Origin: Nemertoderma westbladi
Taxonomy: Eukaryota; Animalia; Xenacoelomorpha
Length of the DNA stretch: 64,000 nt
Direction of reading: 5' to 3'
NCBI GenBank assembly: GCA_032718475.1
Contig: JAUCBJ010008354.1
Coordinates: 1 to 64,000, forward strand
Part shown: positions 7,384 to 56,979 of the stretch, piece by piece
Layout: every line of letters starts with the position of its first letter
How positions within the stretch are numbered: the first letter of the stretch is position 1
Notes under the pieces: generated by a model
Database searches by the model: none
What the model saw: only the letters and a program-made list of their open reading frames with translations
What the model was told of the DNA's origin: nothing
Position numbers and translations under genes: made by a program

Positions 7384-8317
7384 CAGAGGCCTACGGAAAA
7401 CCGCGCAATGCATTACGGTCTTTGTTTACCTTTCTGAGCGAGAACAACTGCTTGGAAATTCTTCTGCACTTCTGTGTTAGAAGTTTCAGACTTTGGCCAA
7501 CATTAGACGACTTTGATTACAAGAACGTAAATCTATTATCTGAATAACACCTGGCCCTCTGCACTGTGCAACTGTGCAACAAACCAAACTACGGTCACAC
7601 ATCTGACCTTAAACATTGCTGTATAATAAAACTGCATTATTTTACTGTCGGTTATTAATTGTTATATGTTGGTGTATATTGCTGATATATTTGGAGAATA
7701 CCGATGAATAATCATAAAACCCTCAATCTTCTTGATTACTAAAGGTTAGAGGAACAGGTTTACCAGTAGCAACTGCGACTTACAATATAGTGGTTTTAGT
7801 GTGCATTAAATGCTATTTCATAATCCCTACATGTGTCAGTTGCTATCCTCCTTATACAGTTATATATGGTTAAATTCAGTGACGGTCGGCAGATCAGTGT
7901 GCAGCAGTGTGAAGTCGTATGCAGCAGTGTGACAGATAATAAAGCATCTCTTAAAGAATGCGCTATTTATGAAAATCAGTAGCCATCTCGTTATGTTTAG
8001 TATAAGTCATAACTCTGTTTTATACTTAAAGCGCCACGTCGTAAAGGAACTGTTAATATTTCCCCGAAAGTGAATAATATTGTCAGAGATTATATAGTAA
8101 CGATCAATCGAATAATACAGTAGGTCTGCAACGCAATAAGGTCAAAGCATCCGAATCCAGTCTCCCTTAACTGTGGGTGAATGATCGCGCATAGACTGGC
8201 TTTGGCTAATGTTACTTAATGTGCACTAAATAATTGTTATAGGCTAAAGTCGATTTATAAACAAGAGGACACCTAAAATTGGCAGGTTAAACTGCTAAAG
8301 GTCTGAAAGCACGAACA
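7384..8317 (+). repeat. 5' LTR of A2 (right part)
   Basis: Matches 40031-40964; ends GAAAGCACGAACA. Confidence 0.9.
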
Positions 8318-8328
8318 ATAATAGATTT
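8318..8328 (+). promoter_or_regulatory. Self-complementary primer-binding site of A2 (ATAATAGATTT)
   Basis: Abuts the 5' LTR; exact reverse complement of AAATCTATTAT at 7529-7539 in the same LTR. Confidence 0.8.
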
Positions 8329-8644
8329 TTAGATTCTTTATTGCACCGTAGGCAATAAAGTCGAAGGTACCGGTCGAACGGTAAGCTGTAGGCCTAACTG
8401 CCCAACTGCCCGAACCGGTACTTACAGGTACAACAGTATTATTCGATTTTGATAATTATATACCGGTAGGTCTTGATATTTAATCAGGGACTGCAGCCCT
8501 GGTTTTTTATTGGGATTTTACTTATTTCTGTCAGTTTTATTTATTTGTAAGTGTAATATTGAGCAGAAGGCGTGTAAGCCTGCTCAGATTGTATAAATAA
8601 TTTGTAGGCTAGATTGTTGTCTGACTGTTGTTAAGTCTGAAGAG

Positions 8645-9182
8645 TGTGACGGGATCCAAGAGGGATCCCGATTTATCCGGTTGTGGTAATTTAGTCCACG
8701 CGTCCCCGCCGTGTATAAGGATGAAATAAAGTGACTGAGTTCTGAAGTTCGGTGTATAATAGGAGGTTATAAGATATAGATATATTGTGAATGTGTACAA
8801 GGCGGGATACGGTAACTAAAGTCCCGTGATCCCCTAACTAAACTAATTGGCTGTACCCTACGCTAGCACTGCTGCACTGAGATAACTGAATCACTGATTA
8901 ATAGGTTATTGGTTATATTGCACGGTGGCCTTACTGCTACTCAATCGATGCCATTCCCCCCTCTGATTGCTTAATACCCTTGTTGGCGCCCCGTGGAGTA
9001 TTCCCGTTCACTCCACCTGTTCTCCTTGGGTTAGGGGTTTGGCCCCTGACCCTCTATTGTGTGCTTCCTTCCCACTCTTATTGGGAAGGCACGAGTTGGT
9101 TAATTGCCCAATCTCGTGGCTCCCAATATTGCTTATCGGCTAATAACTTTATGGGGTGTTGGCGGGATTGAATAAGCTAACA
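8645..9182 (-). repeat. 3' LTR of B1
   Basis: TG...CA termini; direct repeat of 21585-22122; adjacent PPT. Confidence 0.95.
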
Positions 9183-9888
9183 CTCCCCCCCATGCTATCT
9201 TCCCGGTAAGAAGATAGCATCAACCAAAAAAGTGCGCTACAATCCCGCTGGATCCCGATCTAGTATCGGGTGTGGGGTGGAATTCTTTTCTCTTGGAGCC
9301 GGCTTTCCAGGCCGCCCCCTATGGGTATGATAACGCTACCCTGTGTGCCTGGCGTCTCATGTCGGGCCGGTCGCGCTCACCTCCCACGCAACTTTTGTTT
9401 CCCCAACATTTTCGCCCTATCTCACCTTCACTCTCACCCTGACTCTCTCATACTCCCGGACCTCCTCGTCCCTTACTCAGCCTCTTATTCTCCCCCCCCA
9501 CACTAGAATTGCGTTCGCACTCTCTCCGCACTTCACACTCTTATTCCGATTCTCAAGTCCACTCTGACTGTTTTATCTCTCCTGACGAACCTCCCCCCCC
9601 TCTCGTGCCGCCGCACTCAAGAAGTGTGAAATTGTCAGTTGTCTCGTCCATAGTGCCATAGTCAATTGTCCCCCAGTCCCAGTAGCTAATTGAGAAAGGT
9701 TGTATGACTATAGTACTTACTCCAAACGTATGTATTTTATTGCTAATCACTACGTACGTACATACGAATTGCACTTATATGGTTATTTGCATTAATTAAA
9801 TTTATATTTAATAGTTCGTACGTTACATGCGGCGCCTTCCAGGCGCACCACGTCCCAGTCTCATTCTCATTCCCTTGCCTCCGGGAAC

Positions 9889-11536
9889 TTATCTGTACCT
9901 CCTCACGTCCTCCTCCCTGGCCCGTTTCTTGGTTATCACCGCTCCTCTGGCATCATCCGCTTTCTGCTTCCGGACCTTTGCTGCCACTTCCTTGCTGATC
10001 CCGGTCGTCTGCTCCTTGGGCGCTGGTGTTATTAAAGCCCGATACCGCTTCGCCGGTGGCCCCTCAGAATGGCCTGGTTGTTTCCCTCGTGTGGCGTCCC
10101 ATAGGATCATCTTCATTGCCTTTGGTACGTGTTCCGCCAAGAAATCCCTAAACTCCCTCCGGTTCTCTGGTGTCCACCTGTCTAGGTACCGTTGCGTGTT
10201 CATAACTCCGGCGAACGATGCCGCCGTAGCTACCTCTTGATAGGTAAACGGTAACCTTCGCTTTATGATTTCCATGTGGGTCTCCTGGTTTATGAGGAAG
10301 AAACCCCACTTGAACTCTTGGGCCTTCATGCGCTGGCGCGTCATGGCCCCGACGTCGGCCCACTCCTCGAACCTCGTGAACTTCTCCTCGTCGCTCATCC
10401 AGTCGCACTCGCGTCCGTAGTGTCCCCGAAAGTGGCACTTTGGACATCGGTTATGCAACCGTGGACACGCCCATCCTGTGACTTGGTTCTCTACAATAGA
10501 GACAAAAGGTTCCCCGTTGGAACCGGTATAGGCAGCTGCTTTCCTGATGGGTCTGTCTCCCACAGTAGTCGCAGCCGAGTACCAATGTCTCGCGTCCCAC
10601 CTCGTCCTTCGTCCCAAGCGATCTCCGCGGTCTGTGGAGTCGCTGGTAGGCGAACTTCTCTACGTTGCTCTCCCTGTTTACGTCTATCTCTCCGCCCCTC
10701 TCGGGCATCGTCTCCCCGAATACTATCCGTGGTGCCGTCCCCGGTTGCTCGCCCAACCTGATGGTGCTCCCCGCGAAATCCATCGCCGGCCCCTCATGCA
10801 CCCAGGTCCGCTTGCCGGATCTGTTCCAGAAGGCCCTCGCCCCACTGGCCGTCACCACCCTTCCGCCAACCCAGTCCGTGTCCGAGTGGCCTATCCTCTC
10901 GATGGGCGGCATCTCTCCAAACTCGTCGTCGTCGTCTTCCTCTTCTGGTAGTGTCTCCAACCCCGGTATCCCGATGGATCCACTATGTCCCTTCCCGCCT
11001 TGGCTTTCGCCCGTAGCTCTCCATCCCTCTAGCTCCCTTAGCTTCCTTGGCGGTTGGTCGCCCTCGGCGCCCGCTGGTATGGGCATCGTTTGCAACCCCG
11101 ACGTCGACTGTTTCGGCGATCCCACCGTCCATCCCAATTCTCGCCCTAGAGACTCCCCCGAACTCCCTGACGAAGTCCAATGAAGTTCGTCTAGACCCGC
11201 CTGTTCCTCGAAGCCATAACTCTGTGTCCTGGCCTCCTCTTCCCTCTCCTCTGCTTCTATCCTCTCCCGTCTAGCGACTTCTTCCAGTCGCTTTGCTTCC
11301 CGTCTATCCATCTCTAGCTGCTCCCATCTCTGATACGGTGTATCCGTCTCCCCATCTACCAGATGTCGGCTGTTGTAGTACACCGACTCGCCCTTCAGCC
11401 CCGGGTGGTCTACCAGACCGTCAAAGGCCGTCTTAAAGGCTCTCCTGTAGCTTAGGGGTGATCCCGATAACAGAAATGCCCCTGGTTCTCTTTCGATAAC
11501 TACGGTCATGAATAAGTTAAGTAAACTTATCATCAT
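9889..11536 (-). CDS. B1 accessory ORF downstream of pol: triple CCHC zinc-knuckle protein, one frameshift near 10470
   Basis: ORF 10451-11536 carries CDYCGRQTHQESSC and CLYCREPSHRM; the overlapping ORF 9889-10617 continues ACPRLHNRCPKCHFRGHYGREC. Confidence 0.7.
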
Positions 11537-12149
11537 CCAGTCCTCCTGCAGGATATATCGCTTCTGATATACCTTTATCGCTCCTCTGCGAAACTGATAT
11601 ACCTCCTGACTCCGCCTTTCTCTTCCTGATCAGCTTACTCGCCATTCCGAACACTACACTCGCTCACCTGTAGGGTGGTGCCTTACCAAGGCGCAATACA
11701 GATGAGTGATGTATTAAGATGTTTCCTACAGTTCGATAATGGCCTACTTTTCTACTTAACTGCGCCTTTCAAGCTTAATTTAATCTAATTAATTTCGGAG
11801 CTAGTAAATCAGCCTAATTTACAATTTCCGTCCGTTACTTTTATTATGTTCTAGAACGACTTTCCTTGTGTTACCACTATTTTCCGATTTTAGCCCTATT
11901 CTATTTATTTTATTTATTTTGCTTTGATTCTACTGTCCTACTACTTACTACTGCCTATGGATTTATTCTATTCTCTCTCTGATCCATATTCTGGCCTACT
12001 CAGTGGGCCTATGCAGTACAGCAGTATGCGTCGTGTGGCCACACGATTTATCCAGCTGCACTCATATACCCCCTCTCGCTACTAACTCTACTTACTGCTA
12101 TCTAATATCTATATCCTATTTTTACCCCTTTTACCTCTTACTCTCTCTT

Positions 12150-12792
12150 TCTAACTAATGGTACTACGTACCCTCTAACTCTAACTCTAACTAGGTACTA
12201 CGTACCTACTAACTCTCTAACTATCGGTACTACGTACCCTCTAACTCTAACTCTAACTAGGTACTACGTACCTACTAACTCTCTAACTATCGGTACTACG
12301 TACCCTCTAACTCTAACTCTAACTAGGTACCACGTACCTACTAACTCTAACTCTATCGGTACTACCTACCCTCTAACTCTAACTCTAACTAGGCATTACG
12401 TACCCTCTAACTCTAACTCTAACTAGGTACTACGTACCTACTAACTCTAACTCTATCGGTACTACCTACCCTCTAACTCTAACTCTAACTAGGCATTACG
12501 TACCCTCTAACTCTAACTAGGTACTACGTACCTACTAACTCTAACTCTAGGTACTACGTACCTACTAACTAACTCTAGGTACTACGTACCTACTAACTCT
12601 AACTCTAGGTACTACGTACCTACTAACTAACTCTAGGTACTACGTACCTACTAACTAACTAACTCTAGGTACTACGTACCTATTAACTAACTAACTCTAG
12701 GTACTACGTACCTACTAACTAACTAACTCTAGGTACTACGTACCTACTAACTAACTAACTCTAGGTACTACGTACCTACTAACTAACTAACT
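12150..12792. repeat. Array of about 20 GGTAC-TAC-GTACC mini-palindromes separated by (CTCTAA)/(CTAA) runs
   Basis: Counted directly; period about 28-34 bp. Confidence 0.9.
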
Positions 12793-12904
12793 TTTATTTA
12801 TTTTTATTTTATTTTATTTTATTTGTGTGGGAAGGGCGTCTCGCCCTCAATCCCACCCCCCTCAGTCCAAAACTTGGACGACTAAACTCCACTCTAACTC
12901 CAAT

Positions 12905-21468: not shown

Positions 21469-21584
21469 CTCGTCTGGTGGCTGATGGCTCGGCTAGGTAG
21501 GGTGGAGTTCTTTGAGTTTAACTAGGGCGGCAGCTCGGTTTTAGTTACTGAGTTTAGCTGGGGAAGCAACACCGATTTAGTTAC

Positions 21585-25100: not shown

Positions 25101-28100
25101 GTTGGAAAATCTTCAAGAGAAGCAAGACTACTTCAATAAACAAAGAACAGCTAAGCAGATGCAGATGATAAGTCGATCTACTCCCAAGAGACAGGGATTT
25201 ACATCATCTGATGAAGGAGATACAACAGATCCTGAAGGCGGAGGAAATGGATCTCGTTCCAGCAGACGTAGAAGAACGCCTCACCATCAGAAATTGCCTA
25301 ATTTGCCCCCAGCTGTGAGAAGGCAACTAGCTAGTGCAGACTTAGGTAGTACAGAACCCACAGACCAAATTATTAGAGTAGAAAGACTCCCTACTATAGT
25401 AGATGAGCCTGAAATAATTAGGCCTGTTCTCGATGCCACCCCTTCTGTGATAGAGACACCTGTACTTCCAGAACCTAACTCTAAATTCCCTTTGCCCCTT
25501 ACTAAACTACCTGTGCCCAGTAGAATAGCCCCAGAATCAGTCCCAGTCTTGGACGCCGAGCGAGACATCAACGATTTATCGCCCGTCGTCCCTCGTCTAC
25601 CCGCTACTATGTTGGCGGCTCCCGCTTCGGCGGTAGAGGGGGTGGATGAGCGATGGTGGGGAATGGATCTCCTGCTCAGACAAATGGAGGAAAATCGATT
25701 ACGTTCCTCCCAGCACATCCGAGAAATGGAAGGGACTGTGCAGCAGTTAAAGGGAACAGTAAGAGAGGGTAGGTTAGAACTGCAAGAAGTGCAGCAGAGT
25801 ATCGCGTTAGAACGCGATAAATTAGTAAATATACAAAGGGGTATACCACCACCCCCTGTAACAATGTGTCAACCTGTTAGGTCTGAAGTATTTCACGCGC
25901 AAGGTGTGGAGCCTACACGCATCTATACTGATAGTGAAGTAGAAACTCCTATAGTAAACCCTATTAAGGATAATTATAAACCTGTTGATAATGATATTCC
26001 ATATAGAACTGATCATAATCCGAGAAATTTATATACCGATAATTCGATATTAAATAATACGATGGCCCAAGAAAGTTCTACGCGTCAAATGGCTAGAACC
26101 GAAGCCCGTCAAGCGGTAAAGGTGGGAGAGATCGTCAAGTTCAACAGAGATGAGATGAAATGGTTACCTTTTAATGAATATTATAAAGATAACATACAGA
26201 ACTCTGTTCTATCTAACGGAGAGAAACATAGATTCCTCATCGAGTGCTTGGAAGGATCTCCCAAGTTAATGGCGTTAAAGTTTATTGGACATCCAGATGG
26301 ATTAAGACAAGTTTGGGATACACTAAACATCAGGTATGGTAATAGGACTAACATAGGTATTTGTATGCGAAATTGGTAGCGTCCCGAAAGTTTCTTAGCA
26401 GCGGGATTATAGAATTTTCCAATGAGATCCAGGAGATCTGTAGACAATTTGATTGGCTAGGTAAGTCTCATGAATATCAGAGTTCTATGGTTATTGGAGC
26501 TGTAGCATCTACCTTGCCAAAGGGTGGAGTGGGTACTCATTGGGACAAAAGAGTTCTATATATGATGGAACAACAACAAAGAGACCCTACCATGGCTGAT
26601 CTCATGTCATTCTTAAATAGAGAGGTAAAATTACAGCTCCTAAAGCAGTCCCAGAGAAGACACCGGAAAATAAGGTGAGTGAAAAACCCGTTTCTAGGAG
26701 AAAGGTAACACCAGTGTGTTATACAGACGACGGCGAAAGCCAGGCCTCTCAAGAGGAGAACAGCGGGAAAGACACCGACAGATCTTACTATGTCAACAAA
26801 GCACCTAAAGACGTAAGTAAATTTAAGTCTCGAACCAGTGACAGGAGAGAACAGGTAACAAAAACTCCTCCTATGTCTCCTAAGAGAATTCATGGAAGAA
26901 AGCCCGAGGAAAGAACAAGTGTGCACAACACTACCCAAGGTAAAGTAAGTAACATCAAACCAAAATGTGCATTGTGCGACGGGCCCCATCGTTTAAGTGT
27001 GTGTGATGAATTCTTAAAGAAATCCTTAAAGGATAGACGCGAAGTCATTGTGGGATAAGCGGTTGTGTTATAATTGTCTCTGACAAGGACACCAACGGCG
27101 AACCTGTTACTCAGACGCGAGGTGTGCTAAGTGCGGCGCGAAACATCATATCTTGCTGCACACCGAATTTGAAAGAAACAGCCCGAGTCAGGTAAGTGAG
27201 TCCGAACTACATGTCCAATTCAGTGATGTGAACGACACTGACCACAGCTCTGAGATGGAAGGATTTTACACGGACGAATTCTCCGACGAAAACGAATCCT
27301 GCTATCTGATAAACACCGCGGTGTACCGAGCGCTTACGTATGAGACTGAAACCGATAACGAAGCGCACCCGGTTATTCCTGACCGACAACCATCTTGGAA
27401 AGCGCCAACTTCCAAACTCGGAATCCGGGAATTCCCCGTAGTTCAGCTAAGAGTCCATGGATCAGGTAAGAGTTTTATAGTCAACGCCCTCCTGGACTCC
27501 GGCAGCACAGGAACATTCATCGATAAAGAACTAGCCGAAGACATCTTTGCTGGACAACCCAAGTTCCGAACTAAGTTGAACCTTTCAGGAATTATGCAGG
27601 TTTGGAAATCTACAGTAGCTACAGACTACTATGTAGGCGCGTTGTCCACTCCCCAGGACGAACTAGGAGAACACAGCATAAGGTCAGTAAAAATGGTAGC
27701 GATAAAGAACTTTGCTACCAGCCAAGTAGAACCTTACAACTGGGATGAAGACGATTTTACCCAGCAACATAATATCCCTAGATTCAACACCGACTACCCA
27801 GGGGTGAAAATATTGATCGGCCAAAATGCGCATGAGGCGCTTGAGACATTAGAGAAACGACCTGCTCGACCGCAACCATTGCAAACCTATGCGGGAAGAA
27901 CTAGAGTAGGTTGGTACTTCACTGGACCTTCCCGTAGAACGCTCATGGAAAGATTACCCACTGAACAAATACATCAGGTGAGTGAATGGGAAGAAGAAAT
28001 CAGTGAGGGAGAGATCACACCTGAGGGAACACCATACTCCTCGGATAACAACGATATTACCCAATTATATGACGAGGAAAATACAATCGACCTCCTCACT

Positions 28101-30314
28101 GAAAGTGAAGCTTGGAGAAATCAAGTGCACCTTTGCCATCTCATCCATCATGGCGGACAACTCGACTACAATGACGAGCTAAATGAGGTGATAGATCGAC
28201 ACAACGCTAAGATTCGCAACGAACACGCCGTACGATTCTTTACTCAAGAAGCTGTAGAGCCTAATTCCTATGACAAAGCACTATCGGTCGAGGAGGAAAG
28301 AGCCAAGCAGATCCAGGAAACGACTACATGTTTCCTTAGAGATCAAGGTAGGTATGAGATTGGTCTGCCATTCCGAAGGCGAGAACCCAACTTTATAAAT
28401 AACCGACCCTTGGCAGAGAAGAGAATCGCGCAACTACATCGGCGCCTTACAGCAAATGCTTCAGCTAAAGAGATGTACAAGACCCAGCTGAAGAAATTCA
28501 TCGATAAGGGATACGCAGAGCGAGTACCAGAAGAAACACCCATAACTGAGAGAACGTATTATCTAACCCATCATTACATTCCCAAACCCGGTAAACCCAA
28601 CGAAGTCCGGGTAGTATTTGATGGCTCCGCCCTTTACATGGGCCAATCCCTTAACTCTGAGTTGTTGCCGGGACCCAACTTACTCCAATCCTTGTTGGGA
28701 ATACTCTTAAGATTACGGCAATATTCGATCGCCTTCGCCTCGGATATAGAAGGCATGTTCTTACAAGTTAAGGCGCTGGATAGGGATCGAGACAGCCTAT
28801 GATTTCTGTGGTGGCCTGAAGGAGACCTCAACCAAAAACCGGTGGAGTACTGGATGACCATCCAGGCTTTCGGGATCATCTCGAGCCCCTCGAACGCCTG
28901 TTCAGTAGTGCGCACCACTGCTGATGACAACCGAGACGCCTTCTCTAAAGCGGTTATCGACAACATCAAACGGGATATATACATGGGCGATAATTTAAAG
29001 TCCCTCCCATCGGTGGAAGAAGCCATTGATGTTGCCAAGGGAACGGTAGAGTGCTTGAGACGCGGTGGATTTCGACTAACTAAATTCACAAGTAACTCCC
29101 GTGAGTTTCTGGAATCGATCCTGGTAGAAGACCAAGGAGTTAAAGATCTGGACCTAATCAAGGACGATCTTCCGGAAACCAAGACGCTTGGTTTGAAATG
29201 GGACACGGAGAGAGATATCCTGTTTTTCCAGCTAAAACAACGAGATAATCCAATTCGAAGTAAACGGATTTGTCAAAGTATCCTGAGCACTTATTTCGAT
29301 CCATTGGGATTTATTAGCCCAGTTATATTGGTTGCTAGGAGCTTAGTGCAACAAATGTGGCTTGAAAACCACTCGTGGGACGATCCACTTAAGGGAGAAC
29401 TACTAAAGAAGTGGATGAAATGGGAAGATTCTCTACCACCCATCGAGAACTTTACGATTTCCCGTTCATATTTTGGTCACGTTCTCCCCGCGTATTCCTA
29501 TCAACTCCATGTATTTGGAGACGCCAGCGATATGGGAATAGGTATAGTAGCCTACCTGAGGGTTGAAACTCCGGACGGAATTAAAGTCGCCTTGGTTACT
29601 TCTAAGGCCTTGATAAACAACAAGCTACGAGTTCCTTGAGCGGAGTTAAAAGCGGCTCTATACGCTACAGCCATCGGCCGGAATGTAACAGAACAGATCG
29701 ACTATCCACTGGAGAAAACTGTCTATTGGACTGATGCTTTACTCGTTTTGGAGTATATAACCAATGAAGTCTGTCAGTTCAGCGTCTTCGTTACCAACAG
29801 AGTAGCCATTATACTTAGTCGCACTAATGTAGATCAATGGAGACATTGCCCTGGGACGATTAATCCAGCAGAAACTGACAGATACTCCGGACTGGTTGGG
29901 TGGACCCGACTTCCTAAGTAAAGAAGAAGATGAATGGCCTCATCATCTTACCACGGCTGAGATTAGACAAGCCAAGGGAGCAGAGAAAGTCAAACTGTCG
30001 TAGCTTTAATAATGAATAAACACCATTCTAATATAACCATAGTCTTTATTATTACAAAAGCAGTTTTTATGTATAAAGCAACGGTAATTACTAAGTCTAC
30101 ATTACTAAGTGTAATGTAGTACAATACAGCAATGTAGTGTGTTACACTAAGTAGGCTTCCTAGCCTACCGGTACTACACAGCAGTTCAGTATGTTGTTAC
30201 AATACCTAGCCTAATGCATTACAGCAGTATAGTCCAGTACAACATTTTAAATTTCCCTCTATAGTTTATAGTAATCTCCACATACTCCCCTCCCAAATAA
30301 AAGGCATGTACCGT

Positions 30315-33300
30315 CTAAGTTTTGAAATGTTTATAGATTGTCCCTTTGCGGGTAGTAGATGGAGACAACATCCCAACCACTACTGGTGATATGTCCTGGA
30401 TTTGGTCCTGGGTGTTATTCAAATCTGAATACACCTCTCCAAGAAGGTCATTTTGAAAGTTATGAATTTCCTCTGACCTATCTTCCACAATAGACATTTC
30501 TTCTTGGTCAAATTCATTTCCAGAAATGCTGTTAGACCCACCCAAGATATTACTTTCAGTTTCCTCTCCTATTGGATTATATTGTTGTTGGGGTCCCCTC
30601 GATAGTTTACGTACATTCACTGTATCAGACCAACCATCCCCATCATTAACACGCACAACGTAGTCAGATAGAATCTCCGTAATAAATACTTTAGCCACCT
30701 GCTGTAGCTTTCCCTTCTTGCAATAAACCATCGATCCCACTTGAATCCAGTTTGGTAGGTTACAGGCATTGAGCTTAACGTTTGTTGGTGCTGGGTTTGG
30801 AGCAATTGTGGATAATCGACTAAAACCCATAAATCTCTCATGTGGTGATGTCCCTGTGACACGGTTCTTCAGAGTACGTATATTGCCTAAAGCATTATCT
30901 AGTTCTGACTCCCACTGCATAATAGTCTTTCCAGCTTCTCTTAATCTCAACTTAATAGCTGACCAAATGATGCCATTATACCTCTCGCATTGGCCATTAC
31001 CGGCTGGGTTATATGAAGTTGTTCTTGACTTTCTTGTATTCCATGAGCTTAAGAAATTACGAAATTTATCTGAAATCAGCTGTCTTCCTCTGTCCGAATG
31101 TATAGATCTACATGGCCCAAACAAGTTGAACAATATGGTTAAGCACCTTTCCATAGTTACCATTGTCATGTCTGGAACAGCAAAAGCAAAGGGAAACCTG
31201 GAGTATTCATCTACACAAACAAATAAATATTTATTTCGTGTTGCTGATGGTAAGGGACCCTTGAAGTCAATAGAGACTCTTTCCCATGGTGATGTAGACT
31301 GAATCACATTTCCTGGTGTTATTTGGGCAAAGTGAGGTTTTAACTCGCAACACAGCTCACACTCTCGACAGACATCCACACAATCTTGTTTCAGACCATC
31401 CCAACAGTGGTATCTTTTAATAAAATCATACAAGCGATCAACTCCAGGATGACCTAGTCCTTTATGAACCTCTCTCACTAAAGTCGTATTATTATACTGC
31501 CCATTAGAATTTAAAAGATTCCCATTAAAAGCAGTACATCGACTTAATGCATCAGCAATGACATTTTGCTTTCCAGGGCGATATTGAATATCAAAGTTAA
31601 ACTCTGCAAGTTCTAAACGCCAGCGACACAGTTTATTATTCTTAATTTTGCTTTTGGGGCGTTCATCCATTAAATATGCTACACCTTCTTGGTCCGTGAT
31701 TACTTCAAATTTCCTTCCTACCAGGAAATGACGCAGTTTATCAATACAGTAATGCACTGCAAAAGCCTCTAGCTCAGGCGTGGACCAGTTTTTCTCAACA
31801 GCAGTCAACTTGTGTGAAATGAAAGCCACAGGTTGACCATTTTGGGACAAGACACCACCTACAGCCAAACTCGAAGCATCTGTCTCTAGTACTAGGATAT
31901 CTGTTGTATTGGGAATCAATAGCATCGCATCTTTCAGTTTGGATTTGAGTTCAACAATGGCTCGGACACCAGCTTCATTTAATGGAAACTTTGGTGAATT
32001 GCAAGTATCAAATAGAGGAATTGCAACAGTTGCAAAGTTTTCTATCCACTTGGAATAATAGACAAACATGCCCAGTAATGTTTCTAGTTCCTTCTCCGTT
32101 TGGGGAACTGCCATTTCCATTAGTCCAGCAAATCGATCAGGGTCAGGACTGATTCTTCCATTTTTAAAGATATGTCCAAGAAATCGCAGTTCGTTTTGTC
32201 GGATCAGACATTTCTCTTTCTTAAATCTGATACACTTCTCTCGAGCACGAGTTAGAAATTCAATCACACGAGAATCATGTTCTTCCTTTGTTTTCCCCCA
32301 TACCGCCACATCATCTAACAATCCCGCACATCCCTCAATTCCCTCTATAACCGTCATAATTTCTCTTTGGAAAACAGCACTTCCATTTGTTACACCAAAA
32401 GGTAAACGAGTGTATTGATATAGGCGTCCGTTTGCTTCAAAGGCTGTATAAGGCCGTTCATTCTCTACAATGGATAGCTGATGATAGGCTGAGCGAAGAT
32501 CAAACCGTGAATAGAATATACCCTCTCCGATTTTATCCAATAGATCTGGAATGAGTGGTAGTGGGAAAGCATCAACTTCTGTAAACCGGTTTATAGTAGA
32601 GGCATAATCAATACAAACTCGAATCTTATCTCTCTCAGGAACCAACACACACTGAGATCTCCATGGGCTTGTTGATGGTTCAATGACACCTACATTTAAG
32701 AGTTTCTTAACTTCTAATTCAATTATGTGCTGGTCATCTTTGGATCTATAGCGCGATGGCATTCTTACTGGTTTTGTTTTTGGATCCATTCGTATAACGG
32801 AGACTGGTGGAATATTTAAACCAACAATTTTGTCATCAAACAAATCTTTAAATATTTCAAAGAGATCATCGTCAATATGCTTCTCAGAAGCAGAAATGCT
32901 AGACTTAGCAAATCCAGATACTGTTAAATTTCCAAGACTTCCTCCAAACTGTATATGTAGTTCATTAAACTGGTCCAATGCAGAGACACCCATAATTGCT
33001 GGATCACATAAATTCTTGGCAATAAACAGATTAACCAGAACATAGCGACCATCTATTTCCAAAATCTCTGTAGTTTCTCCAACCAAGGTTAATGGCTTAT
33101 CTCCAATATTTTTACAAAGTTCCGAATTCTTCAACCGTTTAAATGAAAGCCCCACTGATTGAGCTGTAGCTTCACTGACTACAGTAATGTCAGACCCTGG
33201 ATCAACTAATCACTGAATGAGCGAGTTATTTAACTTTGACTGTATAAATTTGCGATTACTAGAATATTTTTTGTTATCTTTCTCTTCTAGAGTTGCAACA

Positions 33301-34271
33301 CAATAATTCCCCAGAGTTGCGACATTATAACTCGCTGATTTACCCATTGCAGATCCAGTTTCGGATGTACCCTTCCTTGTTTTACATTCTCTTGCAAAAT
33401 GCCCAATTTTCCCACATTTGTAACATTTTTGGTTTTGAGCTCTGCAATCACCCTTATCATGCCAAGTGGTTATTCCACAAAAGAAACACTTCCAATTCTT
33501 ATCCGTTCCTGACCGGGGATTATTATAGCGGGTGCCCGAACTACACACATTCCTTTCTTCAACTTTGATTTCTGATAATGCAGATTGCATTGTCTCTACT
33601 AGAGGAGCAGCAGCCAATTTTCTCGAATACATAGTGTCTGTGTTATGGGAATCAGTGACTGCCTTTAAAGAAGACAATTCAACTTCAGCTGCTGAAAATG
33701 CATCTTCAAAACCGAAGCTCTTGGAAGACTTTTCCGCCATTTTAAAAGCGCGAAATACTGCAAGTTTCATGTCATCTAGAAACAATCCCGTACAAAATGC
33801 ATCTCTCAGAGCTTCATTCTCGAAACTCACTGGAAACTGACAAAATGAAATAATCTGTCGCAACTTTGACACAAAATCATCCAAGCTTTCTTTATCTACT
33901 TGTTTTGTTGAGTATAATTTTACCCGTTCACTCAAGGAATTTCGTTCTGCTATAAACTTCTTTGTAAGAAACTCTGCCACTCTTTGAAATTCCGTTTGTC
34001 CATCTGCTAGGACAGCCCACTGGCTTACTTCATCATAATACTTTGCTGCCTTTGTTCCAGCATATAACAACAAATAATCAACTTTATCATCTTCTGCAAC
34101 TTTGGATACCCGAAGATATCGCTTAAATTGGCTTAACCATATTTGGAAATCATCCACCCCTGGATTGAATATCGGAACTACCTGTTGTTTCAATCCACGA
34201 GGCCGATCCCCTCTGAATTCATTATTTCCACCATTACCTAGGGCGAGATCGTTACTCGCTGAATCTGCCAT
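30315..34271 (-). CDS. Gypsy-2 gag-pol in a single frame with one internal TGA (33210-33212)
   Basis: Gag with CFFC...H...C and CYKCGKIGHFAREC; protease LVDPGS just after the TGA; RT SPWRS, FDLRSAYHQL, LPFG, LLDD; RNase H ETDAS; integrase SIDFKGP, SDRGRQ, CERYN. Confidence 0.9.
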
Positions 34272-34294
34272 GTTGCAGTGCTCTTCTTAGATTA

Positions 34295-34309
34295 TTATAC
34301 ATAAAAACT
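34295..34309 (-). promoter_or_regulatory. Self-complementary primer-binding site of Gypsy-2 (AGTTTTTATGTATAA)
   Basis: 1 nt from the 5' LTR; 15-nt perfect inverted repeat with 34377-34391 in the LTR. Confidence 0.8.
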
Positions 34310-37300
34310 TTGTCGTAGCTTTAATAATGAATAAACACCATTCTAATATAACCATAGTCTTTATTATTACAAAAGCAGTTTTTATGTATAAAGCAACGGT
34401 AATTACTAAGTCTACATTACTAAGTGTAATGTAGTACAATACAGCAATGTAGTGTGTTACGCTAAGTAGGCTTCCTAGCCTACCGGTACTACACAGCAGT
34501 TCAGTATGTTGTTACAATACCTAGCCTAATGCATTACAGCAGTATAGTCCAGTACAACATTTTAAATTTCCCTCTATAGTTTATAGTAATCTCCACACAA
34601 ACCTAAAACTGGGACGAGTAAATCAAAGTTATTTAAACCAGTGATAGATCTGTCTGTACTACACATTTCCGGGGACGATGCTGTGGATCTAAACTCCCCC
34701 GCCACAAATAAGTCTGTTGTGGAAATCAGAGAGAGAGACTGAAAATCTGGAACACGAGACGTCTCGCAGGGACTCTCACCTCTCCTGCAGAGAGCGATAC
34801 ATCACTATAGCTCCTGGAATCGGCTTTGTAAGGCCGTCGTATATTTAAAGCGATGCTTCCATCATCACTACTCCAGGACGAAGATTGCTAGTGATACCGC
34901 TTCACGGACATCTGCACAGGTCCATGCTATTAAAGATCTTCCCAAATACAAGGTATCAGATAGGTTTCTGACGGAGAAGATCAGTTACCAGGAGCATGAA
35001 GAAACCAATAAGCAGATACTGAGACTCCTGCAATGCTATGAAGATTCCGATAAGTATTTCCTGTTGTTGAGAAATCCACAGATGCGCTTAAGGGATCGTT
35101 TCTCTAGCACAATGATAGATGGGTTAATACATGTTGGAGGGAGATTAACTAATGCTCCATTATCCTTTGACACTAAGTTTCCCATACTCATTAGAAATCT
35201 TGAAATACAAATCAAGATGATTGAAGATGTTCACAGTAAGCTGTACCATGCTGGTAGAGAACGAGTTCTTAGCGAAATTCGAACTCGCTATTATTTCCAT
35301 AAACCCCGTAGAGCTCTGAACCAAGTTCATAGGAACTGTATACCCTGTAGCAAAGCATTCAGTAGGCCTTTAACACAGCGAGAGGCAGAATTACCTAGGG
35401 AACGAGTAAGCTTCTATGAACCACCCTTTACTAATACCGGTGTGGATTTATTTGGCCCTATTGAAGTATATCGTGCTAGGACTATAGTCAAGCGATGGTG
35501 TGTCATCTTTGTCTGTATGACTTGTAGAGCGATCCATCTAGATATGGTGAACGATCTATCTACCAACAGCTTCATGCTGAGTTTACGCCGACAGATCGCT
35601 CGCTTTGGAACTAGCAACACGATGAGATCTGATAAGGGAACGAACTTCATTGGCGCCAATAATGAGATCAAGGCTTACGTTAGAGATTGGAACCAAAGAC
35701 AGGTGGACGATCAGCTAAGGGTAACAGCGTCTAGCTGGACCTTCAACGCCGCCGACGCCCCTTGGTGGGGAGGAAGTTGGGAGAGATTAATAAGAAGTGT
35801 GAAGACAGCATTTCACTTTATAGTGCCTTGCCGCGCGTATCTCACCGACGAACTTTTGCGGACGTTAATGGAGGAAATCGCCGCCTATCTCAACGAGAGA
35901 CCGCTTATGCCAGTCTCATCGAATCCCGATTCCCTAGAAGCGCTAACACCCGCGCACTTCCTACTGAAGAAACCTGTAGCCATGCTCCCACGCTCGGAAA
36001 TCACGGACGGAGACGAATACTGCCGACAAACTTGGCAACTTATGCAGTTATTATCCCGTCGTTTCGCTGACCATTTCGAAAAACATTATCTGCCTACGCT
36101 ACAACTTCGAACCAAGTGGTTTGCGCAGCAAGAAAGCGTCAGCGCCGGAGACATGGTCCTTATTGTGGAATCAGATCTTCCACGTAAGCGGTGGCAAACA
36201 GGTCGTATCATCGAGACTCATATCTCTGATGATGGTTTAGTGCGATCGGTAGAACTCGTCGTCATGCGACATAACTTTAAGAAACCTGGAATTGTATTCG
36301 AAACGCAGCAGCTCAATCGCCCAGTTGGTCGTTTATGTTTACTGGAAAGAGACAGAGAACTATCCGGAAACTATGGAAGGCAAGATATTCATCCCACGAC
36401 CACCTCCCTAATCCAACAAACATCTAGGGACTCCCCAACGTAACAGCGTCTGGAGTGGGTGTGTGACTATATTATTTTATATTTGTTTTTTATTTTTATA
36501 TTTATGTATGTATTATTATGTAATTTTATTATAATCGTTTTCTTTAATTTTATTAAGTAGAATGTTATTTTGGCGATTATTTAGTAGAATTAGTGCAATA
36601 TATATTCGCGTTTATTACTTAATTACTTATATTATATATATTTAGCGTAACGGCGAGAAATAATTCTTTTTCTCTTTCCTTACTGTCCGTATCATATTAT
36701 AAATGCGTGACTACAGTAAGATGAAATATCCGTACTTATTAAAGTACAATAAAGCTCCTACTATACTCAAGTATTATTGGTAAGTAGAGTATTAGGAATG
36801 CAAAGTTCAGATCCCCGTGTCGCGTCTAAACCAAGCTCTGGGTAGACCTTGGAAACGACTTGCCTCTTCTCACTGACATTGCTTCTTGCAATATTGCTCT
36901 CATATCGTATATTAAATAATACATATAGTAGCGTGATGTCCCTTTAACAGTAGCGTAAAACGCAAAATAAATCTGTTAAACCCTTTGACCATCTGTAATT
37001 CTAGTCGATTAAGATATCGCGGCACCCACCGATATACTTGAAAGACGAAATTCTAGAATCAGTGGTTAACGTCCCCAGACATGTTCTGGAATAAATCGGT
37101 GCCCATCTTAAATATTAATTAGTTAATATTTATAAAAATATATTAAAACAAATGTTATAATAGAGTAAATGCATACAAATAAACTCTAAGGAGTTTGTAA
37201 ACCAAAAAAATTTATTAATCAAAATCTGTTAAAATTTAGATCCTTTAAAATTCTAGTCGATTAAGATATCGTAGCACTTACCGATACTCTTAAAAAGACA

Positions 37301-39673: not shown

Positions 39674-39763
39674 TTATTGTCCTCTGACTTACTTGTATTT
39701 TTATATTTTAGAAACTGTGATTTTTTATATTTTATTGAATTAAATCCCATTTTCTGGGAGCGG

Positions 39764-40964
39764 TGTAAAAGCTTTTGCGGATATAACAGGTCATTTTTCT
39801 CCGCAATATACTGTGTAGGTGTTTTACCGGACATAACAAGCCATTTTCTCAGCAATGTACCGTGAAGGTGTTTTAGCGGACATAACAAGCCATTTTTATG
39901 CCGCAATGCGCTAATACTCTAAATAGAGTGTAGTTCAGATGACGAAATCTATCAGCTGATTTACTGTCGATGTGGAACTTCTTTGTTCAGCTCGCTCGGC
40001 CAATCAGAGCGATTTTCATTTTATCTTGCACAGAGGCCTACGGAAAACCGCGCAATGGATTACGGTCTTTGTTTACCTTTCTGAGCGAGAACAACTGCTT
40101 GGAAATTCTTATGTACTTCTGTGTTAGAAGTTTCAGACTTTGGCCAACATTAGATGGCTTTGATTACAAGAACGTAAATCTATTATCTGAATAACACCTG
40201 GCCCTCTGCACTGTGCAACTGTGCAACAAACCAAACTACGGTCACACATCTGACCTTAAACATTGCTGTATAATAAAACTGCATTATTTTACTGTCGGTT
40301 ATTAATTGTTATATGTTGGTGTATATTGCTGTTATATTTGGAGAATACCGATGAATAATCATAAAACCCTCAATCTTCTTGATTACTGAAGGTTAGAGGG
40401 ACCGGTTTACCGGTAGCAACTGCGACTTACATTATAGTGGTTTTAGTGTGCATTAAATGCTATTTCATAATCCCTACATGTGTCAGTTGCTATCCTCCTT
40501 ATACAGTTATATATGGTTAAATTCAGTGACGGTCGGCAGATCAGTGTGCAGCAGTGTGAAGTTGTATGCAGCAGTGTGACAGATAATAAAGCATCTCCTA
40601 AAGAATGCGCTATTTACGAAAATCAGTAGCCATCTCGTTGTGTTTAGTATAAGTCATAACTCTGTTTTATACTTAAAGCGCCACGTCCTAAAGGAACTGT
40701 TAATATTTCCCCGAAAGTGAATAATATTGTCAGAGATTATATAGTAACGATCAATCGAATAATACAGTAGGTCTGCAACGCAATAAGGTCAAAGCATCCG
40801 AATCCAGTCTCCCTTAACTGTGGGTGAATGATCGCGCATAGACTGGCTTCGGCTAATGTTACTTCATGTGCACTAAATAATTGTTATAGGCTAAAGTCGA
40901 TTTATAAACAAGAGGACACCTAAAATTGGCAGGTTAAACTGCTAAAGGTCTGAAAGCGCGAACA
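39764..40964 (+). repeat. 3' LTR of A2
   Basis: TGTAAAAGC...GCGCGAACA; followed directly by satellite. Confidence 0.9.
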
Positions 40965-41615: not shown

Positions 41616-41833
41616 GAGAAATGTTTACAACCATTATCTCGACCCTCGCTGGCACTCGGTAAATAAAATGCCTCGACAATAGTGTAAAACTTCTTTCCCC
41701 ACGTGAAAACTATTTATTGTTACTTTTAAATCAAGTAAATAATTTTGTCTAATTCACTAATGTTTGGAGTTATTTGTTACCACACCCTTTATTTTTTGCA
41801 ATTAACAAGTACTCCTGCCATATACACTAGAAC

Positions 41834-43762: not shown

Positions 43763-44198
43763 CTGACTGTAAACTAAATCGTTGCGGATTCTAGAACGCT
43801 CTGACTGTAAACTAAATCGTTGCGGATTCTAGAACGCTCTGACTGTAAACGAAATCGTTGCGGATTCTAGAACGCTCTGACTGTAAACTAAATCGTTGCG
43901 GATTCTAGAACGCTCTGGCTGTAAACTAAATCGTTGCGGATTCTAGAACGCTCTGACTGTAAACTAAATCGTTGCGGATTCTAGAACGCTCTGACTGTAA
44001 ACTAAATCGTTGCGGATTCTAGAACGCTCTGACTGTAAACTAAATCGTTGCGGATTCTAGAACGCTCTGACTGTAAACTAAATCGTTGCGGATTCTAGAA
44101 CGCTCTGACTGTAAATTAAATCGTTGCGGATTCTAGAACGCTCTGACTGTAAACTAAATCGTTGCGGATTCTAGAACGCTCTGACTGTAAACTAAATC
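43763..44198. repeat. 38-bp tandem repeat, about 11.5 units, overlapping the PRPF3 3' end
   Basis: Unit CTGACTGTAAACTAAATCGTTGCGGATTCTAGAACGCT; only about 3 substitutions across the array. Confidence 0.95.
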
Positions 44199-47908: not shown

Positions 47909-49063
47909 TGTAAAGGCTTTTGCGGATCTAGCTAGTCATTTTCCCCGCAAAGTACTCTGTAGGTGTTTTAGCGGACATAAAAAGCCGTTTTCTTACTGTG
48001 TAGGTGTTTTAGTGGACATAAAAAGCCATTTTTCAGTATGTGTACTTTAGCGGACATAACTAGCGATTTTATGCCGCAATACGCCAAAATACTCTTGATA
48101 CAGTGTAGTTCAGATGACGACATCTATCAGCTGATATGTCCACATAGAGCTTTCTTTGTTCTTTGTTCGGCTCGACCAATCAGAGCGGTTTTCACTCTGT
48201 GTTGGACAGTGCATACAGAAACTCACGCAATTCAGTCAGTGTGTATTTTTCCTAAGCCTAGAACACCGGCTGTGGAATTATTCTGTGTTTCAGACTTTAG
48301 CCAAAACATTAGAACGGCTTTGATCATAGAAACGTATAACTGTTATCCTGGCATACCAGACTCACCTAACCTTTCACTGCATTATTTTACTGCTATTTAC
48401 TGTCGGTTATTAATTGTTAGAAGTTGCTTGCTATGTTGTTATATTTGGAGAATATCGATGAATAATCATAAAACCCCAATCTTCTTGATATACTGAAGGT
48501 TAGAGAGACCGGTTACATATAGCAATTGCGACTTACATTATATTGGTTTTGGAGTGAATTGAATGCTATTTCATAGGCCCTACATTTGTCGGTTGCTATT
48601 CTCCTTATATATGATCAAATTTAGTGAAGGTCGGCAGATCAGTGTGCAGCAGTGTGAGGTAGTGTGCATGAGTGTGACAGGTAACAAAGCATTTCCTAAA
48701 GAATGCGCCTTATATGTAAATCATTAGCCATCCCGTTGTGTTTAGTGTAAGTCATAACTCTGTTTACATACTTAGAGCGCCACGTCCTAAAGGAACTGTT
48801 AATATTTCCCGAAAGTGAATAATATTTGTCAGAGATTATATATTAACGATCAATCGAATAATACAGTAGGCCTACACCGCAATAAGGTCAGAGCATCCGA
48901 ATCCAGTCTCCCTTAACCGTGGGTGAATGATCGCGCATAGGCTGGCTTCGGCTAATGTAGTTTTATGTGTATCAAATACTTGTCATAGGCTAAAGTCGAT
49001 CTATAACCTAGAAGACACCTAAATTTGGCAGGTTAAACTGCTAAAGGTCTAAAAGCGCGAACA
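47909..49063 (+). repeat. 5' LTR of A3
   Basis: TGTAAAGGC...GCGCGAACA; starts abruptly after unrelated sequence (candidate TSD AATCC). Confidence 0.9.
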
Positions 49064-49080
49064 ATAACAGTTATACGTTT
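49064..49080 (+). promoter_or_regulatory. Self-complementary primer-binding site of A3 (ATAACAGTTATACGTTT)
   Basis: 17-nt exact reverse complement of 48330-48346 in the same LTR. Confidence 0.85.
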
Positions 49081-53696: not shown

Positions 53697-54001
53697 GTTT
53701 ATAATTATACTTATATACTATAAGTGTAAGTTGTATACCGGTATTCACGATAGGCTTATTATATATTTATATATATTTGCACTGAAATTATATACCGGTA
53801 TTCTGTGACAAACCTAGTCTGTAATAATACTTATATATATACCATAAGTGTATACCGGTACTCTAATATATTGTATATATATATCACGTTACATAGAGTA
53901 ACGATATCGGTAATTAATTACTAGGCTAACAGTTGATACTGAATTACTAGACTTGCTTTAACTGTCATTATAGTAGTAGGCATTCAACTGTAAAGTAAAT
54001 C

Positions 54002-55275
54002 ATGTCTGACACAACCCAATCACTGTCAGATAGTCTCTTAGAAAGTGTTAGAATGACTGTTAGACAGTGTCTTAAAAAAATCTGTGACCCAGATCAAAGT
54101 ATAGAACATCCCAGACCAAAGTCCAAGTCTCCTCCTACTGTAAGAAAGGTCATCCCTACAGTAGTAGTGTCAGACCCTAGGCTAGTAGAGCACCATAGGT
54201 CTATCATAGGCACTAGGGCTCAAGTCAAGCGGGACCAAGAGGCAGCTGTTAAACAGCAGCAGTACCCGAAACGAGAACTTATTTCTCAACAGCCAGATAG
54301 CTCCAGTAGTTCAGATACTGTAGAGTTGACACCCGAGATCGGAGCAAGGACGACAGAAGTGGTTTATCCAGATCCACTTCTAATTCTTCCTGGAGTCGTA
54401 CTCGCTAGAGTATTGATCGCTGTGGAAGAACATCGAATCGATTGGGCGAGAAGTAAGCGATCGACCAGTTATGCGGGATACACGATGGAGGAACTGAAGT
54501 CTATTGTCGAGACGCAATGGAACTTTCCCGGACCCGGACTCCCGTTTAAATTATCAGAAGCTGCCTGGGAAGATTTATACAGGATGGGAGTAGTAAGAGA
54601 CACTCAAGATCCAGCTGTGTGGAAGAGGTCGGCAGCAGAATACGTCCAGGGATTCTTCAGCTCTTTGGAGCGCGTAGAGGAACACCTGTTTCAACGACGT
54701 CAAAGACCTCAAAAGCAGGAAGAGCTGCTTTATCAAGTTCGAGAAAGAATTCTAAGAATCAGACTAATCCTATCGGCCTTTGAGGAAGCTTCGAAAAGAA
54801 GACAAGACACGTCGTTGCAAGTTGCCGTGAAGACTTGGTTCCAGCGGGTGGGTCTCAAGGTTCAAGGAATGGCCCAGTGGAAATCTCAGCTGGCTGAGCG
54901 CTCAACCCACGGAGAATCAACAGACGCTACCTTTTCTCAAGTGGAAAGCGAAGCGACAGCAGAGAAACCGCAGAAGAGGGACGCTATTGACATCTATCTG
55001 TCGGACTATCAACGATTTATAGGTGACAAAGAGTTAAAGAGACGGCTAGCTGGACTTCGCCCCAATAGTGAGGGAGCCAAATTAGTGTTGGACTCGTAAG
55101 ATGCGGAAATGTGGGCCGCTGAGAAGGCTAAATGGGATGAACGCCTCCTCATCGTTAAGCAACAAGAAGAACAAGTAAAGAAAAAACGTATAGAAGATAG
55201 AAAGACAGCAGCAGCGGCAGCGGCAGAGGCAGAAGCGGAAAGAAAGGCGGTCGAAGTGGAAAGAAAAGCGGCCGA
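54002..55275 (+). pseudogene. N-terminal gag region of A3
   Basis: Homologous to 23708-25000 and 59278-60560; one stop at 55097; truncated by the LTR insertion. Confidence 0.85.
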
Positions 55276-55788
55276 TGTGACGGGATCTATGAAGGATCCC
55301 AGTTTATCCGGTTTTCAATCTACGCATCCCCGCCGTGTGTGAAAGGTAAAAGAGAGTTATTGATCGCTGTATATAGTTCTTCGGGTATAATAGTATAAGA
55401 TATAATATGATGATAACATAAAGTATATGATGTAATATTGGAAACACAGTGATTCACAGACAGTAAGACGGTAATTGAAGTTCCGGTACTACCCTAGCTA
55501 AGCTGACTTACTATAAGTGAATGAAATGATTACTGTACTGATAATATATATTGCACGGTTGGCCAAGTTACGTTACCCAGCCGGTGCCTTCCCCCCATTG
55601 GCTAATAACTCTGTTGTGGCCCTTTGCCCCCCTCTGAAGTGCTTCCCTCTGCCCCTGCTATTCTCTCTCTTTCAGGGGTGTAACCCCTGACCCTTATTGT
55701 GCGTATGTGTGTGTATTTTCTCCTTCCCACTTTGTTGGGGTGACACGAGGTTGATATTGGTAATCAACCTCGTGTTCCCAATATTGCT
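55276..55788 (-). repeat. B2: LTR related to B1, interrupted by A4
   Basis: Starts TGTGACGGGATC like the B1 LTR and shares blocks through CCCAATATTGCT, where A4 begins. Confidence 0.8.
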
Positions 55789-56968
55789 TGTAAAGGCTTT
55801 TGCGGAATTAGCCGGTTATTTTCCCTGTAAAGTACTCTGTAGTTAGTTTAACAGGCATAAAAGGCCGTGTCCTTACTGTACTGGTGTTTTAGAGGACATA
55901 AAAGCCATTTCTTCTGTATGTGTACTTTAGTGGACATAATTAGCAATTCTATGACGCAATGCGCCAAATCCTCTTGAAACAGTGTAGCTACCATGACGAC
56001 GGCTAACAGCTGATGCTGTACACGTGGAGCTTTTTCTTTGTTCTCTGTTCCTTCTTTGTTCGGTCGACCAATCAGAGCGTTTTTTGCCTCTGTGTTAGAG
56101 ATTGTATATAGAAACTCGTGGAGTTGAGTCAGTATGTGATTTTGTCCACAGCCTCGAACACCGGCTTTGGAACCTCCGCATTTCAGTCTTTAGCCCAACA
56201 TTAGTAGGCTTAATTATAGAACGTATATCTGTTATCATAACAAACCAAATCAATCGAAACTCACTTAACGAACTAATCATATTGTCAACTACAAACACCG
56301 CATTTTTACTGCCATTTACTGTCGGTTATTCATTATATTTGTTGATGGAATATTATATTTGGAATACTGATAAATAATCAGACACCCCAATCTTCTTGAT
56401 ATACTAAAGGTTAGAGAGACCGGTTACATATAACTATTGCGACTTACATTAAGTGGTTTGAAGTGAATCTAATGCTATTTCATAGACCCTACATGTATTG
56501 TCTGTTGTTCTCTTTATATGTGACTAAAATTAGTGAATGTCGGCAGATCAGTGTGCAGCATTGTGCAGTATTGTGTATGATTGTGACTGATAACAAAGCA
56601 TCTCCTAAAGAATGCGCCATATACGTGAATCTATAGCCATCCCGTTGTGTCTAGTTTAAGTCATAACTCTGTTTACATATTTAGAGCGCCACATCCTAAA
56701 GGAACTGTTAATATTTCCCGAAAGTGAATAATATTTGTCAGAGATTATATATTACGATCAGTCAAATAATACAGTAGGCCTACCCCGCAATACGGTTAGG
56801 CTTCCGAATCCAGTCTCCCGGGTATATCCAGCGGGTGAATGATCGCGCATAGACTGGCTTCGGCTAATGTAGTGTATCAAATACTTGTCATAGGCTAAAG
56901 ACGATCTATCATCTAAAAGACATCCCAATTTGGCAGGTTAAACTGCTAAAGGTCTGAAAGCGCGAACA
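55789..56968 (+). repeat. 5' LTR of A4
   Basis: Family A termini TGTAAAGGC...GCGCGAACA. Confidence 0.9.
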
Positions 56969-56979
56969 ATAACAGATAT
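56969..56979 (+). promoter_or_regulatory. Self-complementary primer-binding site of A4 (ATAACAGATAT)
   Basis: Exact reverse complement of ATATCTGTTAT at 56225-56235 in the same LTR. Confidence 0.8.

Follow-up and report, generated by a model that had tools for sequence, protein, structure and literature searches.

Self-priming of reverse transcription has been described for the long terminal repeat (LTR) retrotransposons Tf1, Tf2 and Tj1 and for the Tf1/sushi group (PMC4600332, PMC5341516). The International Committee on Taxonomy of Viruses (ICTV) describes the replication of the Belpaoviridae as poorly understood and gives them an 18-nt primer-binding site (PBS) that pairs with the 3' terminus of host tRNA-Arg or tRNA-Gly (PMC8742986). 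Here we report on a BEL/Pao-type family, called family A, found in four copies (A1 to A4) in a stretch of 64,000 nt from Nemertoderma westbladi (GenBank assembly GCA_032718475.1, contig JAUCBJ010008354.1, positions 1 to 64,000, forward strand), referred to as the window. Its PBS and LTR sequences indicate that family A probably primes minus-strand DNA synthesis with a piece of its own RNA and not with a host tRNA.

In Tf1, the primer:PBS duplex is accompanied by two duplexes between PBS-adjacent sequence and the LTR downstream of the primer, and this pretzel is needed by the element (bioRxiv 10.1101/2022.12.06.519325). Self-priming was also predicted for the plant Tcn1 clade and for the Ty1/copia TAR lineage (Houba, Osr-1), and the fungal element GalEa carries a different, hairpin-type site (PMC6317226 and PMC5445492, respectively).

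Family A resembled Tf1 and Tf2 of Schizosaccharomyces pombe, Tj1, Tosmo1-3, Tcry1 and the Tf1/sushi group in lacking a tRNA PBS and in having an LTR-complementary PBS just 3' of the 5' LTR. Its candidate primer:PBS duplex lies between two predicted helices that may correspond to the flanking duplexes of the Tf1 group. The Tf1 group, however, consists of Ty3/gypsy chromoviruses, whereas family A is BEL/Pao-type, has a primer-to-PBS loop of 730-790 nt, may carry its primer site ~100 nt inside the RNA instead of at the 5' end and is known from sequence alone. With TAR and Tcn1 it shares a self-priming predicted from sequence outside Tf1, by a mechanism that has arisen in more than one superfamily; these lineages belong to other superfamilies and hosts, and the accessible part of the source did not extend self-priming to BEL/Pao (PMC6317226). 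Like the Belpaoviridae of the ICTV description (PMC8742986), family A had LTRs of ~1.2 kb with TG...CA ends, a purine tract, the order Gag-protease-reverse transcriptase (RT)-RNase H-integrase and the domains PF03564, PF05380 and PF18701, but its PBS is without TGG, self-complementary and variable. Family A probably works like Tf1 without being a member of the Tf1/sushi group, and it does not fit what the ICTV gives for the Belpaoviridae to which it belongs.

The initial annotation knew of no description of self-priming in Belpaoviridae. No report of a self-priming BEL/Pao element was found in the open literature; subscription journals, Repbase and GyDB lay outside the search, and a note in one of these databases may exist. 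The accessible parts of PMC3601003, PMC5443660 and PMC8220671 held nothing on BEL priming. The main texts of De la Chaux & Wagner 2011 (PMC3118150) and Copeland 2005 (PMC554778) did not mention PBS or tRNA, although their supplements may bear on PBS types.

Family A and its LTR-complementary PBS

The copies and their parts were located as follows.

6215..7383, plus strand: 3' LTR of A1, with a site (6643-6659) equal to that of A3; A3-like upstream of the site and A4-like just downstream
7384..8317, plus strand: 5' LTR remnant of A2, with 19 differences over 934 nt against the A2 3' LTR and its first ~267 nt missing
27084..36443, plus strand: pol region of A2 (protease, RT, RNase H, integrase; PF05380, PF17921, PF18701)
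39764..40964, plus strand: 3' LTR of A2 (TGT...ACA), preceded by a purine-rich tract
47909..49063, plus strand: 5' LTR of A3
55789..56968, plus strand: 5' LTR of A4
60763..63645, plus strand: gag-protease open reading frame (ORF) of A4, with PF03564 (DUF1759)

The Pfam scan covered 14 ORFs, six of which gave no match. PF03564 (DUF1759) was matched in the A4 Gag ORF, and PF05380 (Pao peptidase), PF17921 (H2C2) and PF18701 (DUF5641) in pieces of the A2 pol. No chromodomain was matched by Pfam in the family A ORFs, and Pol was not of the Ty3/gypsy chromovirus type found in Tf1/sushi. The Gag and Pol domain set, taken from Pfam and the homologue listing, matched BEL/Pao with the order protease-RT-RNase H-integrase. 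All 120 listed integrase homologues (of 587) had PF18701, with identities of at most 42% among the matches listed, and the named ones among these 120 came mainly from fish and aquatic invertebrates and some from insects. Judged by its domains, family A is a BEL/Pao-type LTR retrotransposon, which bears out its first assignment. The family was abundant in the host: 2458, 8492, 4708 and 110 contigs of four DNA runs (three samples) mapped to 48200-49200. In-frame stops interrupt the A2 pol, as does a Gypsy insertion (29996-34597), and its RT motif is degenerate; an RNase H region is present.

The elements had LTRs with TG...CA ends and a purine tract 5' of the 3' LTR. LTR starts lay at 6215, 39764, 47909 and 55789, and all five LTR 3' ends read ...GAACA (8317, 49063 and 56968 for 5' LTRs, 7383 and 40964 for 3' LTRs). 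Unrelated flank followed the 3' LTR ends at 7383 and 40964, and the PBS followed the 5' LTR ends immediately, with a gap of 0 nt. The A1 3' LTR abuts the A2 5' LTR remnant, likely by insertion of A1 next to it. The PBS of three copies and their LTR counterparts are listed here.

7529..7539, plus strand: candidate self-primer core of A2, within its remnant of the 5' LTR; complements 8318-8328 exactly and recurs unchanged at 40176-40186 in the A2 3' LTR
8318..8328, plus strand: PBS of A2, abutting the LTR end, exact reverse complement of 7529-7539
48330..48346, plus strand: candidate self-primer of A3 (17 nt), with the in-register 11-nt core at 48336-48346; exact reverse complement of 49064-49080
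49064..49080, plus strand: PBS of A3 (17 nt), adjoining the LTR end
56225..56235, plus strand: candidate self-primer core of A4, exact reverse complement of 56969-56979
56969..56979, plus strand: PBS of A4, adjoining the LTR end

These three pairs had been put forward in the initial annotation as exact reverse complements (11, 17 and 11 nt), and so they were; each duplex began 0 nt past the LTR end, as also claimed. The stated absence of a TGG-type tRNA PBS held as well: TGG was absent from the first 28 nt of all three leaders, which also lacked an ICTV-type 18-nt site for tRNA-Arg or tRNA-Gly. A hidden TGG site behind a wrongly placed LTR boundary was ruled out by the fixed ...GAACA ends together with this lack of TGG. 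As in Tf1-type elements, the PBS of family A thus complements a segment of its own LTR and no tRNA site is seen. The site had been placed at one homologous position ~420-440 nt into the LTR. Homology stood, since the 11-nt cores were in register at LTR positions 413 (A2 3' LTR), 428 (A3), 435 (A1) and 437 (A4), but the A2 5' site lies only 146 nt into its remnant. Of the A3 match, all 17 nt are exactly complementary, but only 48336-48346 is the in-register core and the 6 extra base pairs extend upstream.

The match was specific for the LTR of the same type. The longest LTR-anchored complement was 11, 17 and 11 nt in the cognate LTR of A2, A3 and A4; against LTRs with another site type, no PBS exceeded 7 nt. 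The A3 PBS also complemented the A1 3' LTR over 17 nt; A1 and A3 share one site type. The observed match was reached by 27, 0 and 71 of 20000 Markov-model LTRs and by 6, 0 and 1 of 1000 dinucleotide shuffles for A2, A3 and A4, with offsets of 0-3 allowed in the shuffles. A primer paired across an exon-exon junction within the LTR was rejected: the best spliced match was at most 8 nt vs 9-17 nt contiguous in 5/5 LTRs. The right LTR edge of an LTR element is fixed by the start point of minus-strand synthesis. Since the duplex begins exactly at this edge, its geometry fits priming there. Work on Tf1 by Levin, Lin & Levin, Butler and Atwood-Moore is said to have established details including a primer length of 11 nt; that two of our duplexes have this same length is suggestive only.

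Site and PBS covaried, as initially proposed. In the alignment of A2, A3 and A4 (n=3 site-PBS pairs), eight of the 11 core pairs were invariant and the other three had all changed on both sides, with no wobble and no mismatch. A strictly Watson-Crick core fits copying of the primer into the new PBS during plus-strand synthesis, as would follow from the established scheme of LTR replication. Selection on a helix would tolerate G-U pairs. In the flanking helices described below, three of the four retained changes were one-sided G-U changes and three further cells were broken. We infer that the core may be kept matched by primer copying and the flanking helices by selection.

A second line of evidence came from the sequence just past the site. 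A C stood directly after the core in 5/5 family A LTR copies, followed by a block of 49-101 nt in which the copies diverged sharply.

48347..48395, plus strand: hypervariable block of A3, beginning with the invariant C after the core; also at 6660-6721, 40187-40287 and 56236-56314 (49-101 nt)

Divergence set in 1 nt past the core. Identity within the block was 37-56% in five of six LTR pairs and 82% for A1-A4. In runs X1-X3, summed contig depth, which is no copy number and allows a qualitative comparison, stood at 51-96 thousand at 48315, was ~60-fold lower at 48348 (0.7-1.4 thousand) and recovered by 48378; the shallow run X4 showed no such drop at 48348, leaving it in 3/4 runs. Ancestry changed at the same place. 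Up to the site the A1 LTR was 95.6% identical to A3 and 81.1% to A4, and just past it A1 followed A4. Informative columns grouping A1 with A3 vs A1 with A4 numbered 7 vs 3 upstream of the site and 5 vs 24 downstream (Fisher p 0.004). In retroviruses and Ty1, first-strand transfer takes place at the end of the strong-stop template, a point at which errors and crossovers are expected. Cleavage of a self-primer, in an element with no tRNA site, predicts a template end 1 nt past the PBS-complementary segment. The observed break also marks the likely R boundary, from DNA alone. In the PBS itself, depth in runs X1-X3 was ~7-fold lower at position 13 than at position 12, which hints weakly that the 17 nt of A3 are a minority extension of an 11-12 nt norm.

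The cores lie in palindrome-like settings (48336-48346, 56225-56242, 7529-7549). The A1/A3 core is nearly its own reverse complement, and in A4 and A2 the first PBS bases recur just after the site. These contexts could be dimer signals or strand-transfer scars.

Predicted RNA fold, RNA start and primer length

Folding placed further helices around the core duplex, and the LTRs carried promoter-like motifs upstream of it.

48870..48887, plus strand: LTR segment X of A3, predicted partner of the leader sequence just downstream of the PBS (49081-49098); in A2 8124-8141 with 8336-8353, in A4 56778-56795 with 56985-57000
48931..48943, plus strand: LTR segment Y of A3, predicted partner of the U5 end, just upstream of the PBS; in A2 8185-8197, in A4 56843-56855
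49025..49044, plus strand: predicted U5 stem-loop of A3, invariant; in A2 8279-8298, in A4 56929-56950
48176..48240, plus strand: promoter-like motifs of A3 (CCAAT at ~-160, TATA-like at -122, initiator (Inr)-like at -104/-100 from the core)

When the RNA was started at the core, the core helix was present in the minimum free energy (MFE) fold of 3/3 copies across 730-790 nt, the distance from site to PBS. Its pair probabilities were mostly 0.7-1.0, with lower values for the outer pairs of A2 and A4. With a start 6 nt earlier, the core helix was weaker in A4. Long-range RNA folds of this kind are unreliable.

Helix X had 15 pairs, with one two-sided change, two G-U changes that keep pairing and two pairs broken in A3; helix Y had 11 pairs, with one G-U change kept and one pair broken in the A2 5' LTR. 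The two-sided change in A4 suits the X pairing and breaks a competing local hairpin of the leader. The two helices lie at homologous places in 3/3 copies and are suggestive of a Tf1-like pretzel around the core duplex. The U5 stem-loop was in the MFE fold of 3/3 copies and never varied, so it contributes no evidence from covariation.

The leader arm that pairs with X has a competing hairpin partner just downstream (8336-8360, 49083-49105, 56985-57007). Its alternative pairings constitute a possible conformational switch.

Promoter motif patterns were chosen post hoc. Relative to the core, CCAAT stood at -157 to -176 in 4/4 LTRs, a TATA-like motif at -118 to -130 in 3/4, the Inr-like TCAGT at -96 to -112 in 3/4 and TTTCAG at -44 to -48 in 4/4. 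The motif scan of these four LTRs found no TATA-like motif at -25 to -35 before the core. A conserved poly(A) signal was not found, AATAAA or ATTAAA occurring downstream of the site in only 2/4 LTRs. Imperfect pairing upstream of the core was equalled by 115 (A3), 84 (A4) and 60 (family B, a second BEL/Pao family, see below) of 2000 shuffles, which is weak, and by 542 for A2 and 1756 for a nested Gypsy element, which gives no support.

Folding favours a start of the RNA at the first base of the core, as proposed in the initial annotation, and the promoter-like motifs and the extended pairing speak against it. A start at the core may be right, at somewhat short of even chances, and we give the same credence to a start up to ~110 nt upstream with a longer primer. 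Since pairing extends weakly beyond 11 nt, the primer may be longer than that of Tf1, and a longer, internally cut primer appears about as likely as a terminal one of 11 nt. The TTTCAG motif (48288-48293 in A3; 44-48 nt upstream of the core in 4/4 LTRs) follows a pyrimidine-rich stretch and resembles a 3' splice acceptor or a trans-splice acceptor; if it were used, a primer started upstream would become shorter and the duplex would stay as it is.

Nested elements and other neighbours

Two further LTR elements are nested in A2.

8645-22122, minus strand: BEL/Pao family B, with LTRs of 538 nt (100% identical), a 5-bp target duplication and an ORF of 2112 aa; young
29996-34597, minus strand: Ty3/gypsy element in the A2 pol, with LTRs of 287 nt (99.7% identical) and a PNMA-like Gag; young

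The integrase region of family B was 28% identical to that of family A. The 9 nt abutting its 5' LTR (21584-21576) complement an LTR site at 21760-21752 (10/1000 shuffles), and family B had no TGG PBS. Its site was followed by a C of the invariant type, as in family A, and imperfect pairing extended ~30 nt further upstream. The nested Gypsy had neither a chromodomain match nor a TGG PBS; 15 nt beginning 1 nt after its 5' LTR (34309-34295) complement an LTR site at 34391-34377 (0/1000 shuffles), and an AATAAA lies 26 nt past the site start. A self-complementary PBS was thus present in 3/3 LTR families of the window, judged in family B and in the Gypsy by the match alone, as each has one copy.

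The window contained no tRNA genes and no Rfam matches. A search of metagenomes for the LTR-end pattern gave two matches, neither of which BLAST related to the window; viral sequences gave none. Of four candidate related loci on viral contigs none was confirmed. No listed contig of the four DNA runs on 48200-49200 spanned both site and PBS, the longest listed record being 473 nt.

An ORF for PRP3 (U4/U6 snRNP) lies at 44154-46088 on the minus strand; it is intronless and full-length (644 codons) and may be a gene or a retrocopy. Its identity to PRP3 was 42-50% across many animal phyla, with no phylum standing out, which marks the host as a divergent animal without placing it. Tandem repeat arrays, seen by self-comparison only, occupy 12134-12792, 40965-41616, 43763-44198 and 20083-20380, two in family B, one at the A2 3' flank and one beside PRP3.

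Proposed mechanism, rival explanations and meaning

In the proposed mechanism the RNA would fold into the predicted Tf1-like pretzel, with the site:PBS duplex flanked by the two helices. By analogy with Tf1, RT/RNase H of the element would cleave this RNA directly behind the last base of the site, before the invariant C, so that a free 3' OH lies at the LTR edge. Strong-stop DNA would run up to this cut and then transfer to the 3' end of a packaged RNA. Such a jump would make the bases past the cut a hot spot for errors and recombination, matching the observed break. Plus-strand synthesis would then copy the attached primer into the new PBS, and PBS and site would stay matched in strict Watson-Crick pairs.

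An unlikely but coherent explanation is that the duplex is a structural long-range helix under selection, serving packaging, dimerisation or a switch, with another primer at or near the PBS. Selection on helices also yields compensatory changes, the region is rich in predicted helices, and the near-palindromic A1/A3 core and the PBS-start repeats after the A2 and A4 sites resemble dimer signals. A structural helix would, however, happen to cover exactly the bases needed for primer binding, its core shows no wobble intermediates, unlike the flanking helices, and it leaves unexplained the divergence and ancestry break 1 nt past the site. No other primer site is visible. Priming by a host RNA, be it a small RNA or half a tRNA as known from some Copia elements, with the LTR match secondary, is very improbable. 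PBSs for half tRNAs without TGG do occur in Copia lineages (PMC6317226, PMC5445492), but a fixed primer would reset the PBS to one sequence, yet 3/11 positions differ, and three host RNAs would be required, each fitting a PBS and also the LTR site that goes with it. There is equally little to be said for the match as a by-product of chance, assembly error or repeated local template switching of LTR sequence into the leader: the sequences are AT-rich and the 6 extra pairs of A3 look, weakly, like a minority event from the depth drop in the PBS, but three diverged copies use the same LTR position with their own letters in each, chance is at most 6/1000 per copy, and two unrelated nested families have the same signature.

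Several points weigh against self-priming of family A or against parts of the evidence for it. Only three site-PBS pairs, from related copies, were available, the covariation shuffle result of 13/500 is no probability, and the structure was derived from these same three sequences. At -8 to -10.5 kcal/mol, the AU-rich 11-bp cores form weak duplexes, and a start 112 nt upstream removed the core helix from the folds of A2 and A4 (2/3). The promoter-like motifs hint at a place 100-170 nt before the core. The flanking helices were weak against 100 shuffles each (leader arm, X: 30, 8, 1; U5 end, Y: 65, 5, 5). The ancestry switch rests on a single apparent recombinant, A1, whose sites are not independent.

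More tentatively, and at less than even odds, BEL/Pao elements could combine tRNA-free self-priming and a convergent pretzel with a primer unlike the short 5'-terminal piece of Tf1: a long, capped 5' fragment of about the size of a tRNA (~40-120 nt), released by an internal cut at the site that pairs with the PBS. No tRNA site is seen in any of the LTR lineages of the window, a Gypsy and two distant BEL families, so LTR elements of this host may have escaped tRNA priming as a rule.

If self-priming of family A is true, BEL/Pao would be the third LTR superfamily with this mechanism, after Ty3/gypsy, where it was shown for Tf1, and Ty1/copia, where it was predicted for TAR. The flanking helices hint at a convergent origin of the pretzel fold, and the finding bears on the question whether self-priming is ancestral or was repeatedly gained. 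Annotation based on the PBS misses self-priming elements. Such elements would also, if the mechanism holds, escape host control exerted via tRNA fragments at the PBS.

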